Assembly: GCA_963662625.1 (NCBI GenBank)
Contig: OY759726.1
Coordinates: 384,001 to 448,000, forward strand
Direction of reading: 5' to 3'
Length of the DNA: 64,000 nucleotides
DNA from: Nitrosopumilus sp.
GTDB lineage: Archaea > Thermoproteota > Nitrososphaeria > Nitrososphaerales > Nitrosopumilaceae
Shown here: one piece after another, positions 1,720-17,257 of the stretch
Numbering within the stretch: the first letter of the stretch is position 1
How the letters are laid out: every line of letters begins with the position of its first letter
Position numbers and translations under genes: made by a program
Notes under the pieces: model-generated
The model's database searches: none
Told to the model about the DNA's origin: nothing
Seen by the model: only the letters and a program-made list of their open reading frames with translations

Positions 1720-3056
1720 CAGTAGATCGAAATGTACCCCTGTGGGGCGTTGGCCAGCATGTATTGACCTGGCACTGGAACGTTTTGGACAGAAAAACCA
1801 ATGGATCAGGCGCCCCTGTCATCCGTCATGTACAACCAAAACGAACCGCAGGGGCACCGACTCAGGGTGGCCGGCAAGGCGTTTAAAATGTTGCCCGGGC
1901 TGCTGGAGAGGGCGGGCATCGGGTTCTCGGGCCGGCACAACGCCGTGTACGGCATGGCCGACTTCGTGCGCGTTCTGGTGTCCATGTGCAGGGACCGCGC
2001 GTGCGCGTCTGGCGCCACCGGGACGCTCGCCGTGCGCCACGGGCCCCGCCGCGTGCCGTCGTCGGCGTGGGTGCTCTCCAGGATACGGGGGGCGTGCCCC
2101 GAACCGGACGCCATGCGGGAGCGGTGCGCCGGCGCCCTCGCATCCACCGTGCGGGATGCCGGGCGGTCGAGGATCCTCAGGCGGATCCGCTGCGTCGTGG
2201 CCCTGGACTACCACCTGATACCCAGGTACGACAGGGATCCCGCGACCAGGGAGGAGCAGCTGGTGCGCGCGAGGCACAGGTCCGGGACGTCGCGCTTCGA
2301 GGGGTACGCCACCGCCCAGATGGTGGACGGGCCGGGGCTGAACCTGGCGTGCAGGCCCAAGGGGGGGAGCACGGGGGCCGGAATCGTGCGCGAGCTGCTG
2401 CGTGACTGCGCTGGCGTGGGCGTCCGCCCCAGGCTGGTCCTGCTGGACCGGGGATTCTTCTCGGCAGGGGTCGTCGGGGAGCTGTCCGGGTCGGGCCACA
2501 GGTTCATCATGCCCGCGTCGCGGACTGCCGGGATAAAGAGGGCCGTGGGGGAGCACGCCCGCGGGGAGAGGGCCGCGGTGTCCCCGCACGCCCTGACGCC
2601 CCAGGACAGGAAGGCCAGCGAGCCGTTCACCCTGGTGATAGTCCCGAAGAAGGAGGGCGAGGACGGGTGGGACTCGGGGGACGCGCAGGAGAGGTACCTG
2701 GCGTACGCCACCAACGCGGACGCCGGCAGGGCGGTGCGCGCCGCCGACGTCCCTGACGAGTACCGGAAGAGGTGGGGGATAGAGACCGGGTACAGGGACG
2801 CCGAGAAGGCCAGGCCCAGGACCACCAGCCCGGACGCCTCGGTCAGGACGTTCCTGTTCTTCATGGCGCTGGTGATGTACAACCTGTGGATGATGTCGGT
2901 GGAATGGTCCGCCGGGTGGTACGGGAGCCGCGACACCGCCTCGATCCGGCTGGCGGTCATGCTGGAGTGCATGGTGGGGATGGCTGCGGGCGGGACGGAT
3001 GGCTGCCGGGCGTGGCCCAACCAGTCGTCTGGCGGCTAGTACATTTCGATCTACTG
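1720..3056 (+). mobile_element. ISH3-like (IS4 superfamily) insertion sequence
   Basis: Perfect 18-bp TIRs CAGTAGATCGAAATGTAC (1720-1737 and 3039-3056) around a DDE transposase; no direct target duplication. Confidence 0.85.
1801..3039 (+). CDS. DDE transposase, ISH3/IS4-like
   Basis: VALDYH, LLDRGFFS and YRKRWGIETGYR (YREK) motifs. Confidence 0.9.
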   Translation: MDQAPLSSVMYNQNEPQGHRLRVAGKAFKMLPGLLERAGIGFSGRHNAVYGMADFVRVLVSMCRDRACASGATGTLAVRHGPRRVPSSAWVLSRIRGACPEPDAMRERCAGALASTVRDAGRSRILRRIRCVVALDYHLIPRYDRDPATREEQLVRARHRSGTSRFEGYATAQMVDGPGLNLACRPKGGSTGAGIVRELLRDCAGVGVRPRLVLLDRGFFSAGVVGELSGSGHRFIMPASRTAGIKRAVGEHARGERAAVSPHALTPQDRKASEPFTLVIVPKKEGEDGWDSGDAQERYLAYATNADAGRAVRAADVPDEYRKRWGIETGYRDAEKARPRTTSPDASVRTFLFFMALVMYNLWMMSVEWSAGWYGSRDTASIRLAVMLECMVGMAAGGTDGCRAWPNQSSGG

Positions 3057-10346: not shown

Positions 10347-11661
10347 CAGTTAAGCGAAATGTACCCGATCCTGCCCCCTCATGGCGGGGGCTTGGGCTCC
10401 AGTATCCTGGCCGACTCCAACTGGCAGGCGAACGCCCGCTGGGCCGTCACGCCGTTCCCGCAACCCCTTCCAGAAAGGACGGCCCGCACCACCACCCACT
10501 CGTTGTACGCCAGCAGCGAGTAGCAGGGGCACGGCATGCGGGCCCCCTCGTCGGCGACCCTAGTCTTGGCCCCCATGGGCCCTGTAACCCTGTACGACGT
10601 CCCGGTGCCCCGCCTGCGCGGGTACCCCCTTGCGCTGGCTGCGGGACGGTTGGTCGCAAACCCGACGTGCCGCTCCTCAGGGACGGGGGGATCGTCGCAC
10701 TTCTTCCTCTCCTCGATCTTGACGTGGTACCCCGCGGAGTTCCGCCCCCCGGCCGCCGCCGGGGACACGCCGGGCCTGGCGTTGCGCGCGGACTCCCGCA
10801 GCGCGGCCACCGCGTTGCCGGTGTTCCTGCACGGCACGGGGTACCCGGTGCGGGCCCTGCCCGGCGCCCTGACCGTCCCCGCCGCGAGGGACTCCCTGCT
10901 CGGCAGGACGGGGCCGGGCCCGATTCCGGCGTCCCGGACAGACCGCAGCGCCCTTTCGACGAAACCGGGCACGGAACCGGACATGCTCGCGCGGTACGCG
11001 CCCAAAACCAGCGGGTACCTGCCCCCGACGCACCGGGCCGCGGCGTGCCTCCCGGACAGCCTGGTTCCGTTCTTGCTCCCGGGGCGGGTCAGCCCGGGCC
11101 CCGGCGCGGAACCGTGGCGCGGTATCAGGTGCATGCCGGTGGCGACGGGGGGCTTGCGGGGCAGCCTTCCGGCCCTTTTGGGCGCGGCCGCTTGCCTCCC
11201 CACGGCGCCGCCGAGGGCATCCTGGATCCCGGCGCCGCCGGCCCCCCGGGCGCCAAGGCGGACCGCCTGCCCGGGGGGGCCGCCCTGCTGTGCACGGCCT
11301 TGGCCGCGTTGGCGCACCCCCCGACCTGGTGCGGGACAGGACCGGGGAGCGGTGCCACTGTGCACGGCCTTGGCCGCGTTGGCGCACCCCCCGACCGACG
11401 AGTCCCGGAGCGCGGCCCCAAGCATGCCCCGGCTGGGGGCGCCCGCTCCAAACACGGCGTTGCGGCCCGCTGGCCGCATGAGCTGGGCCAGGAACCCGCG
11501 CATGCCTGCGACGACACCCTGATATAGGCGGGGGTCGTTCACCATGTCGCGGCCCTGGCGGGTCTTGTTTCGAGACAATCCAAGTCTTGTCGGGGCCCAT
11601 CCCCTGTTGATCTGTTTGGAATTGCGAGAGTTGACTATTTGGTCTACTTTTCGCTTAACTG
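10347..11661 (-). mobile_element. decayed ISH3-like IS nested in IS630 copy 1
   Basis: TIRs CAGTTAAGCGAAA; 6-bp TSD CTGAGA (10341-10346 and 11662-11667); empty site seen in copy 2; degenerate HVGFATN...YPRRRGTGTSYR (YREK) motif. Confidence 0.88.
11288..11396. repeat. 39-bp perfect direct repeat around a 31-bp unique spacer
   Basis: CTGTGCACGGCCTTGGCCGCGTTGGCGCACCCCCCGACC at 11288-11326 and 11358-11396. Confidence 0.95.
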
Positions 11662-11757
11662 CTGAGAGGGGGCACTGCAGAAAAGCCTGTTGATCACCGG
11701 ATCGCCGAACCATCCACGGGCGGGACCGACAGGAAACCGCGGGACCTGACGGAGGCC

Positions 11758-12779
11758 ATGCGCGCAGAGAGGGACGCCAGGATCCGCAACAGGACGGTGG
11801 CAGTGCGCGGGGTGCCCGGCGGATACCCCGCGAGGGACGCCGCGTACTTCGTAGACGTAGAACAGCGCACAGTCCGCCCGTGGGCGGGACGGTCCGGCAC
11901 CGGCGGCCTCCGGGACATTCCCGGCAGGGGAAGGAACCCGCGCGTCCGGTACGGCCCCATGGGCAGGCTTGCCGGCAGGCTCGGCCGCATGGGCATGCCC
12001 GCGCCGAGGAAGCTCCGCAACAGGGTGCGCGGGGTGCCCGGGCGCGCGCACGTCCCGTGCAGCGTGCGCAGGATCATGAGGGAACTGGGGTTCTCCCCCA
12101 AGAGGCCCGCCACCAAATATGCAGCTGCCGCAGGCGACGACGCGGTGCGGCGGCTGCGGGCCTGCGCCGCAGGCGCGATTCTGCGCGCAAGGAGGCGCAA
12201 GACGGCGACAGTGGTGCAGGACGGGCCCGCCTTCGTCAGGATGGGCACCAACGGCCGGAGGCTGTGGTCCCGCGTAGGGGAGGGGGCCGCCGCCGGCAGG
12301 CCCGGCAGGAGGGACAGGGCAGCCGCGTGCGGCTCCCTCGCGGCCGACGGGACGGGGCCGGTGCGGCCGTGCGGCAGGCCCGGTGGGGACACCTTCCTGG
12401 CGTACCCCAGGGAGATCCATGAGGCTGTGACATGAGGTGCGTGATCTGCCGGAGGGGTGGGGACACCTTCCTGGCGTACCCCAGGGAGATCCGGCGCAAG
12501 CGGGGGCGCGCGCCGGTGGCAGCGGGCAACGCGGGGCAGCACGGGACGGCGGACGCGGGGGAATGCCTGCGGGACCGCCGAGAGATCGAGGCACTGTACC
12601 TTCCCACCGCCACGCCGAAGCCCGGCGCGGCGGGGGCCGTGTGGAAGGAGGCAAAGCACGGGCGGGTCACGTCCAGGCACCACGGGACGCTGGACGGCTT
12701 GAGGCGCTCAGTCTCGGAGTATTTCAGGACGTGCCCGATCAGGGCGGGCACCTGCAAGTTCCTGTACCGTTCCATATGA
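11758..12779 (+). pseudogene. IS630 transposase pseudogene (start codon lost, frameshifted)
   Basis: Near-identical to 15981-16979; start ATG changed to ACG; split into ORFs 11758-12435 and 12432-12779 by the insertion. Confidence 0.9.
12382..12492. repeat. 37-bp perfect direct repeat around a 37-bp unique spacer
   Basis: GGTGGGGACACCTTCCTGGCGTACCCCAGGGAGATCC at 12382-12418 and 12456-12492; single copy and no spacer in IS630 copy 2. Confidence 0.95.
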
Positions 12780-12811
12780 GGGGAAATTTTCAATAATCGT
12801 CACTATAGGCC

Positions 12812-15899: not shown

Positions 15900-17005
15900 G
15901 AGTGACGCTCATAAATAATTTCCTCCCTGAGAGGGGGCACTGCAGAAAAGCCTGTTGATCACCGGATCGCCGAACCATCAATGGACGAGACCGACAGGAA
16001 ACTACGGGACCTGACGGAGGCCATGCGCGCAGAGAGGGACGCCAGGATCCGCAACAGGATGATGGCAGTGCGCGGGGTGCCCGGCGGATACTCCACGAGG
16101 GACGCCGCGTACTTCGTAGACGTAGAACAGCGCACCGTCCGCCTGTGGGTGGAACGATCCGGCGCCGGCGGCGCCGGTGGCCTCCGGGACATTCCCGGCA
16201 GGGGAAGGAACCCGCGCATCCGGTACGGCCTCATGGGCAGGCTTGCCGGCAGGCTCGGCCGCATGGGCATGCTCACGCCGGGGAGGCCCCGCAACAGGGT
16301 GCGCCGGAAGCCCGGGCGCGCGCACGGCCCGTGCGGCGTGCGCAGGATCATGAGGGAACTGGGGTTCTCCCCCAAGAGGTCCACCACCAAATATGCAGCT
16401 GCCGCAGGCGACGACGCGGTGCGGCGGTGGCAGGCCGACGCCGCAGGCGCGATTCTGCGCGCAAGGAGGCGCAAGACGGTGACAGTCGTGCAGGACGGGC
16501 CCGTCTTCGCCAGGATGGGCACCAACGGCAGGAGGCTGTGGTCCCGCGTCGGGGAGGGGGTCGCCGCCGGCAGGTCCGGCAGGAGGGACAGGGTAGTCGC
16601 GTGCGGCTCCCTCGCGGCCGACGGGACGGGGCCGGTGCGGCCGTGCGGCAGGTCCGGCGGGGACACCTTCCTGGCGTACCTCAAGGAGATCCGGCGCAAG
16701 TGGGGGCGCGCGCTGGTGATAATGGACAACGCGGGGCAGCACAGGACGGCGGACGCGGGGGAATACCTGCGGGACCACCGAGAGATCGAGGCACTGTACC
16801 TTCCCACCGCCACGCCGAAGCCCGGCGCGGCGGGGGCCGTGTGGAAGGAGGCAAAGTACAGGCTGGCCACGTCCAGGCACTACGAGACGCTGGACGGCTT
16901 GAGGCGCTCAGTCTCGGAGTATTTCAGGACGTGCCCGATCAGGGTGGACACCTGCAAGTTCCTGTACCGTTCCATATGAGGGGAAATTTTCAATAATCGT
17001 CACTA
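15900..17005 (+). mobile_element. IS630-family element copy 2 (uninterrupted)
   Basis: Same ends as copy 1; TA duplication in a CTAG target. Confidence 0.92.
15981..16979 (+). CDS. IS630 transposase, ORF open but catalytic motifs degenerate
   Basis: HTH region, QDGPVF (canonical DE), MDNAGQH, TPKPGAAGAVW (canonical PELNxIExxW). Confidence 0.85.
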   Translation: MDETDRKLRDLTEAMRAERDARIRNRMMAVRGVPGGYSTRDAAYFVDVEQRTVRLWVERSGAGGAGGLRDIPGRGRNPRIRYGLMGRLAGRLGRMGMLTPGRPRNRVRRKPGRAHGPCGVRRIMRELGFSPKRSTTKYAAAAGDDAVRRWQADAAGAILRARRRKTVTVVQDGPVFARMGTNGRRLWSRVGEGVAAGRSGRRDRVVACGSLAADGTGPVRPCGRSGGDTFLAYLKEIRRKWGRALVIMDNAGQHRTADAGEYLRDHREIEALYLPTATPKPGAAGAVWKEAKYRLATSRHYETLDGLRRSVSEYFRTCPIRVDTCKFLYRSI

Positions 17006-17257
17006 TAGTGCAATTGGTATTTGCATCTCTACAGGTATTCCCATACTTGATATCCAGTTACCAAATCCTGGATTACCAAACTTTCCTACTCCGTGAGCTA
17101 TAAAGATTACTCCAATGACTGATCGCAGTCCCATATTTACAATATCGTCAAATTTGGATATTGAAAATCCCGTATTTTCTTCAATGGTACGGAAAGTCGG
17201 TCCGCGCCGGATCAAGAGGACGGTAGCCGACTATTTTAGGCTGTACCGGTCACGGAA

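Follow-up and report, generated by a model that had tools for sequence, protein, structure and literature searches.

The DNA analysed here, called the window throughout, is a stretch of 64,000 nucleotides (nt) corresponding to C1:384001-448000 of the closed 1.86-Mb chromosome (63% GC) of an uncultivated Nitrosopumilus sp. archaeon; plain coordinates refer to the window and those prefixed C1 to the chromosome. It contains two copies of an insertion sequence (IS), both on the + strand, one of which is broken by a duplicated 37-nt stretch enclosing 37 nt of unrelated sequence, an arrangement resembling a repeat-spacer-repeat unit of a CRISPR array. Copy 1, which bears this 74-nt unit, was placed at 11662..12808 by alignment with copy 2 and BLAST against the genome, and copy 2 at 15927..17008 by alignment, BLAST and a domain search; the ends of the element (length ~1.07 kb) are those set by alignment of these two copies alone. 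Copy 2 has an intact open reading frame (ORF) of 332 aa (15981-16979, +) with Pfam matches to DDE_3 (PF13358, 4.2e-10) and HTH_29 (PF13551, 1.5e-05), and hence the element is IS630-like. Four full-length and several partial copies are present in the genome. In copy 1, the transposase frame in the ORF list (11758..12435, +) is cut to 225 aa and ends within the insert, and the pieces of this broken transposase gave no Pfam match at E values up to 0.01. With the 74 nt removed, the computed copy-1 frame stays open for 348 codons, with a GC content at third codon positions (GC3) of 0.87.

The left copy of the duplicated target (R1) occupies 12382..12418, the insert, or 'spacer', 12419..12455 and the right copy (R2) 12456..12492, all without an assigned strand. 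R1 and R2, a 100% identical pair (D1), begin with G on both strands; their starts lie 74 nt apart in the repeat search of the window, leaving 37 nt between them. When the window was searched for the 37-mer with up to 3 mismatches, three sites were found (R1, R2 and, with 3 mismatches, 16656-16692), against 0.00 expected from 100 shuffles, so that a chance origin of the duplication is excluded and the perfect duplication described in the initial annotation is real. The third site is the empty, single-copy target in copy 2 (no strand). It lies at about codon 225, within the DDE_3 match (aa 180-307), and the alignment of copies 1 and 2 has a single 74-column gap, in copy 2, exactly there; copy 2 does hold the empty allele, as had been proposed. 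The target is held once in all five IS630-like copies or fragments, other than copy 1, that contain the site. The insert, read directly and compared with the genome, is unique both within the window and genome-wide. A TGA codon at 12433-12435, inside the insert, is in frame with the copy-1 transposase, and as 74 is not a multiple of 3 the frame is also shifted; both the stop and the frameshift had been anticipated. The IS630-like transposase of copy 1 is thus truncated inside its DDE domain. It had also been claimed that both repeats carry substitutions specific to copy 1. This stands for repeat position 3, which is T in R1 and R2 and C in all five other site-bearing copies and fragments, whereas the other two differences from copy 2 are also found in further IS copies. 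As R1 and R2 have this T in common, the duplication is younger than that substitution. A DNA fold of the target recovers the hairpin CCTGG-N6-CCAGG noticed earlier, with its stem at positions 15-19/26-30 and its loop at positions 20-25.

A second unit lies 1.1 kb to the left, at 11288..11396 (no strand; repeat 39, insert 31, repeat 39, unit 70), in an element of four to five copies just left of IS630-like copy 1. Four paralogues of this unit have an empty site, and in each of the three public runs that cover the window a contig of ~91-96% identity omits exactly the 70 nt of the unit, 37 letters being ambiguous in placement.

Such units recur across the chromosome. The chromosome was scanned for exact direct repeats of at least 24 nt with a start-to-start distance of 30-300 and at least 15 nt between the copies, disallowing a third copy nearby and excluding the CRISPR array. 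The scan returned 43 isolated pairs, 25 of them at a spacing of 70-74 (four at 70, three at 71, six at 72, nine at 73 and three at 74). Outside this peak only 2 of the 43 have a spacing below 132, and a mismatch-tolerant scan (4 mismatches in 32) gave the same peak; unit lengths therefore do not vary widely across the genome, a result that would have spoken against the initial proposal had it been otherwise. One of the 25 exact pairs, at C1:1366762, was removed for lying within a family of 75-nt protein repeats, and five pairs with 1-3 mismatches were added from the tolerant scan, giving 29 curated units. The weakest of these (348484, 480580, 506436, 631904 and 1137212) have short exact cores or 2-3 mismatches. 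Spacing in the 29 off-array units is 69-74 (mean, 72.07), and the two copies are free of mismatches in 20. In the 18 clean units the duplication measures 34-39 nt; the inserts span 31-38 nt.

Seven units have paralogous empty sites (4, 5, 3, 15, 2, 2 and 17 paralogues), and none of these paralogues has an insert of any kind. The off-array units are insertions and not the ancestral state. In same-genus genomes, which have ~71-75% DNA identity, three of the units were not covered in the region searched. Dispersed repeats account for 12% of the genome and harbour nine of the 29 units (p=0.005), in agreement with the suggested enrichment in IS copies. Their hosts include, besides the IS630-like element, a DDE_Tnp_1 element with at least 15 copies, two copies of which carry a unit; a copy of this ~1.2-kb transposase element lies in the window at 1801-3039, with at least 15 other sites in the genome. 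One 72-nt unit is in frame within a PKD/DUF285 surface protein, and others are located where frames start or end. Gene context was taken from open frames and GC3, which is a rough guide at 63% GC, and of ten frames run against Pfam five had no family. This placing fits a selective loss of harmful insertions; a preference of the enzyme is the alternative.

All 29 units hold one insert and none holds several. The initial annotation had the insertion in the transposase seeding a proto-array; with 29 of 29 units single-insert and with repeats unrelated to the CRISPR repeat, this part of the claim is not borne out. Outside the array, loci with at least three copies at a spacing of 66-80 are all protein repeats or short tandem repeats, with the exception of C1:463590-463790. 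That locus has three copies of a ~35-nt repeat, at spacings of 72 and 71, with CGGCCCCAT in common with the CRISPR repeat, and may be a mini-array with two spacers or a tandem repeat of 72 nt that has decayed. It was not counted as a proto-array because its flanks and first 'spacer' carry a common motif.

The statement that no cas gene lies in the window is true but incomplete, as the sole Cas1 match of the genome is on the same chromosome, 1.3 Mb away. This match is a Cas4g/Cas1g fusion of full length (NF049935; 727.6 bits, the cut-off being 560). It matches the solved Cas4/Cas1 fusion 7mi4 with 549 bits over residues 7-554, and a Cas2 gene adjoins it. The array (C1:1683977-1693742) holds its 36-nt repeat 135 times, without variation, and 134 spacers measuring 34-40 nt (44 of 37 nt, 41 of 36, 22 of 35, 17 of 38 and 8 of 39). 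A GSU0053-type cas7 and a cas3 lie on the far side of the array from the adaptation genes. Judged by the Cas4/Cas1 fusion, Cas2, GSU0053-type Cas7 and Cas3, the locus is of type I-G. A second cas7 and cas3 pair lies 11 kb beyond the first, so that C1:1668958-1683794 holds two cas3 and GSU0053-type cas7 pairs, one after the other, next to a single array and a single adaptation module, an arrangement suggestive of a duplication of the type I-G effector module.

The Cas1 homologue that the initial annotation called for is therefore present, with Cas2 and a 135-repeat array, and its dimensions agree with those of the units. The array repeat is 36 nt, the commonest spacer lengths are 36-37 nt, and the repeat-plus-spacer unit is 70-76 nt (mean, 72.6), a range in which the 37+37=74 of the unit at 12382-12492 falls. 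The duplication and its empty alleles, the agreement in dimensions, the genes for the enzyme and a genome-wide family of scars were all directly observed, and we consider it very probable that this unit is an off-target spacer integration scar of the genome's own type I-G Cas4/Cas1 fusion and Cas2. The proposal of ectopic integration by a Cas1-like integrase is supported more widely than it was made, with ~29 units genome-wide, and on this reading off-target integration is natural and frequent in this genome. We infer Cas4/1-Cas2 as the agent, and the order of the chemical steps. The complex, loaded with a 37-nt prespacer, would attack the transposase gene at a G on either strand, the two positions being ~37 bp apart, in a hairpin-prone stretch; gap filling would then copy the 37 bp to either side of the insert, and the product would be a repeat-spacer-repeat of the size of one CRISPR unit. 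Such a unit does not amount to a functional CRISPR, since the Cas proteins process a repeat to which its own bears no relation; an unrelated repeat, a single insert and a location inside a coding frame all set 12382-12492 apart from a functional array.

The ends of the duplicated stretches are consistent with attack by such an enzyme. Their first base is G at 24 of 36 ends (background, 0.31; p=1.4e-5), the others being C (9), A (2) and T (1). The targets are also more stable as folded DNA than random 34-42-mers (minimum free energy of -5.78 versus -4.26 kcal/mol; p=0.006), and in the target at 12382-12492 the loop, at positions 20-25, is placed as in the CRISPR repeat. The G's at the ends and the hairpin propensity are the only features that targets and CRISPR repeat have in common.

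The inserts are all different, and none matches an array spacer. For thirteen of the 29, the chromosome holds another exact or near-exact copy at a different place, compared with 2 self-matching spacers among the 134 of the array (Fisher p=1e-9). One of the 13 sources is a multicopy element and 12 are single-copy. Three of these 12 lie less than 4 kb from the orc1/cdc6 gene and the AT-rich, repeat-bearing region before it, and 7 of the 12 fall within 816-926 kb. The region in question, C1:839000-840700, is an AT-rich intergenic stretch with repeated GGAAATATAGGGGTC boxes that precedes the sole orc1/cdc6 gene of the genome, and is likely to be the replication origin; no clear origin emerged from GC skew. 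In this region, or up to 4 kb from it, are the sources of several off-array inserts and that of array spacer c113. The two array spacers that match the host chromosome perfectly have their sources at C1:837999-838035 (c113), 1 kb from the origin region, and at 1799688-1799725; TTN is absent beside both sources. These spacers may be tolerated or may prime acquisition, and priming by the c113 self target would give the same cluster of sources as an origin effect.

For the protospacer adjacent motif (PAM) we relied on TTN, taken from the type I-G literature (PMC6547450), in which TTN is the type I-G PAM in G. sulfurreducens and about half of the unique new spacers had it. TTN adjoins 4 of the 13 insert sources, against ~7% expected. 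An identical 8-nt sequence, CTTGCCAC, precedes two independent self sources of off-array inserts, C1:925987 and 1512149; either chance or a TTG PAM that has slipped by 4 nt could account for it. The insert at 12419-12455 has no second copy in the genome by blastn-short, which disposes of the idea that it was copied from nearby sequence. Neither the 37-nt insert nor its 24-nt core had an exact match in viral_contigs or in metagenome_contigs, and, with up to 3 mismatches allowed, the insert was found in 0 of 200 other genomes of the family. In viral_contigs there were likewise 0 matches to two array spacers and to another off-array insert.

A number of observations weigh against integration by Cas4/1-Cas2. 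The targets resemble the CRISPR repeat no more than expected by chance (12.88 versus 12.88 matches; p=0.52), and a leader-like flank was not found at the units. The duplication is 37 nt here and mostly 37-38 nt in the clean units, as against the 36 nt of the CRISPR repeat, and repeat and insert lengths are anticorrelated (r=-0.70). TTN does not adjoin 9 of the 13 self sources, and the look-up of a source and a PAM for the insert at 12419-12455, recommended by the initial annotation, yielded neither in any of the searches. The p-values for the cluster of sources at the origin rest on windows picked after seeing the data. The link between Cas1 and the units comes from three genomes, two of them partly covered, and is correlative only. 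At 7 of the 17 scorable junctions, a stretch of 2-4 nt is identical between the flank of the source and the target end next to it, compared with 9.3% in mismatched pairs (p=5e-4). To our knowledge, junction microhomology is not a described trait of Cas1-Cas2, and it is a trait of microhomology-mediated repair.

The last of these observations is what would be expected if the units had arisen independently of Cas proteins, from a staggered break or a replication template switch followed by microhomology-mediated synthesis, leaving filler DNA and a duplicated overhang. That many inserts are templated from the same chromosome, and that the targets are unlike the CRISPR repeat, would also fit such repair. 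However, nothing in repair would set the insert at 31-38, the duplication at 34-39 and their sum at 69-74, the size of a CRISPR unit; the G at both ends is left unexplained, as is the absence of such pairs from 800 kb of a related genome without a Cas1 match, described below. We therefore regard repair as a very improbable origin. As the source of microhomology under integration by Cas4/1-Cas2, it is conceivable that the prespacer's 3' ends pair with a breathing target; type I-G prespacers have 3' overhangs of ~7 nt (PMC10274657).

Long target duplications are a mark of integrases in general, and 9 of the 29 units are in mobile DNA. The units could then be due to another element or integrase, leaving a very short mobile insert or an excision footprint with a ~37-bp duplication, a casposase-like enzyme being one candidate. 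Casposons have target duplications of ~14-15 bp, which counts against a casposase-like enzyme. The 29 inserts have no common sequence and no terminal inverted repeats, and the sole Cas1-type gene of the genome is the CRISPR one, fused to Cas4 and beside Cas2. An origin from another integrase is, in our view, highly improbable.

We give similarly little credence to an assembly or sequencing artefact, in which an assembler or chimeric reads would have produced a duplication with a foreign filling, even though the data for the 12382-12492 locus itself leave room for one. The public data for the window are three runs from one study, all of them contigs rather than reads; among the contigs listed, none crosses the R1-insert or the insert-R2 junction, which is a further point against a genuine integration event. 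Cover over 12382-12492 comes mostly from contigs of ~91-96% identity and from other copies of the IS, which is multicopy. In two runs, X1 and X2, zero-difference contigs begin at 12463, the first 31-mer leaving R2. If the assembler word size behind these starts was k=31, which we take to be the case, they are where a 37-nt duplication would be expected to split a de Bruijn graph of 31-mers; this fits a real duplication but is no more than suggestive. An artefact would also have to account for 29 units with one geometry, G-flanked ends and inserts from the origin region, and for units of the same kind in an independently assembled congener.

That congener (G002) is the one genome among 20 relatives that has the same Cas4/1 fusion (742 bits). 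Its CRISPR repeat is closely similar to that of the host and its CRISPR unit is 73 nt. In the 476 kb covered, two of seven isolated pairs outside the CRISPR are units of the present kind (37+36 and 36+38), and the insert of one has a self copy 5.7 kb away. No Cas1-type candidate was found in G003, a complete genome of the same family; in 800 kb of it, 0 of 15 isolated pairs have a spacing of 69-75, whereas 10.8 would be predicted from the density in the host genome.

Events of this type are already known; those described here are natural, archaeal and of type I-G, and are unusual in their number, in their self-derived inserts and in their microhomology. Nivala, Shipman and Church (2018, Nat Microbiol) described off-target integration and 'neo-CRISPR' units in E. 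coli overproducing Cas1-Cas2. The units here are like the neo-CRISPRs in having a spacer-sized insert and a duplicated genomic flank of repeat length, in lying off-array and in having the adaptation complex as their maker. They differ in being natural, without overexpression, in belonging to an archaeal host whose Cas4/Cas1 fusion is of type I-G, in amounting to ~29 fixed events over 1.86 Mb, and in that nearly half of the inserts are self-derived, with sources centred on the origin and microhomology at the junctions. Natural evidence in that study, from two other species, is termed 'circumstantial' by authors citing it. With P. furiosus Cas1-Cas2 in vitro, off-target full-site integration was observed, the attacked G or C positions being separated by one repeat length (PMC6698737). 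Our units similarly point to attacks in pairs, one per strand and as far apart as a repeat is long, with G and then C favoured. The off-target sites of P. furiosus had positions in common with the CRISPR repeat, whereas likeness to the repeat is at chance here; the substrate there was plasmid DNA in a tube, whereas the products here are chromosomal and inherited.

Canonical type I-G systems (formerly I-U) are comparable in having spacers of ~36 nt, a partial selection for a TTN PAM and prespacers with ~7-nt 3' overhangs (PMC6547450, PMC10274657), and the host Cas4/1 is a close full-length relative of the solved fusion. In canonical adaptation the spacer enters where leader and repeat meet, and the 36-nt repeat is duplicated; the sites here are scattered, the duplications are mostly 37-38 nt and most of the identified sources have no PAM. 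The 'ectopic spacer acquisition' of S. thermophilus and S. mutans (PMC7999890, PMC5338259, PMC8265633) likewise takes place away from the leader-proximal repeat, but inside the array at genuine repeats, whereas the present events are outside it and in unrelated sequence. In the literature searched, 'ectopic' otherwise denotes events within arrays. Self spacers in P. furiosus are taken preferentially from OriC and from transposons (PMC5737086), and the concentration of chromosomal sources at the origin here is similar. That pattern was seen in arrays after short-term culture (PMC5737086), whereas here it is seen in off-array scars, with only 2 of 134 array spacers being self. Full-text literature searches gave no description of numerous units of this kind in a natural genome.

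Taken together, these observations lead us to a broader reading that we hold tentatively and put at somewhat less than an even chance. In it, Cas4/1-Cas2 would be a chronic, genome-wide insertional mutagen in a thaumarchaeal lineage, whose stray integrations would choose G-flanked, hairpin-prone stretches of ~37 bp. Pairing of 2-4 nt between the 3' end of the prespacer and the target might aid these integrations, a mode of capture that is undescribed for Cas1-Cas2. Since the scars would not be expressed as CRISPR RNA (crRNA), they might form an unselected record of uptake, including self DNA taken near the origin or near a primed self target, and new arrays might develop from them.

So far, Cas1-Cas2 has been shown to integrate off-array with overproduced proteins in E. 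coli and in test tubes. With ~29 fixed events in this genome and more in a congener, and with genes broken or altered that include two transposase families and a surface protein, the units allow a hidden cost of CRISPR adaptation to be measured directly. They also represent an accidental route by which a host can knock out its own mobile elements. Because they escape the purge of self-targeting spacers, the scars record the raw uptake spectrum of an uncultivated archaeon, an origin hotspot included, and off-array scars have long been postulated as the starting material for new CRISPR arrays. Annotators will read the frameshifts caused by such units as pseudogenes. The spacing scan is simple and can be applied to any genome.

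Several minor observations concern the host genome. Its Orc1/Cdc6 is 79-84% identical to the best 80 loci, which are mostly Nitrosopumilaceae or other Thaumarchaeota/Nitrososphaerota records, and McrA was not found in the genome, which is thus not that of a methanogen. Nitrosopumilaceae are usually AT-rich; the host genome has 63% GC, compared with 42% GC in the 476 kb of the same-genus genome G002. Large surface proteins at many places in the genome contain runs of a 75-nt (25-aa) DUF285/BspA-like repeat, for example at C1:381300-383800, 898700-899500 and 1602000-1604900, and these repeats overwhelm naive CRISPR finders at spacings of 75 and 150.

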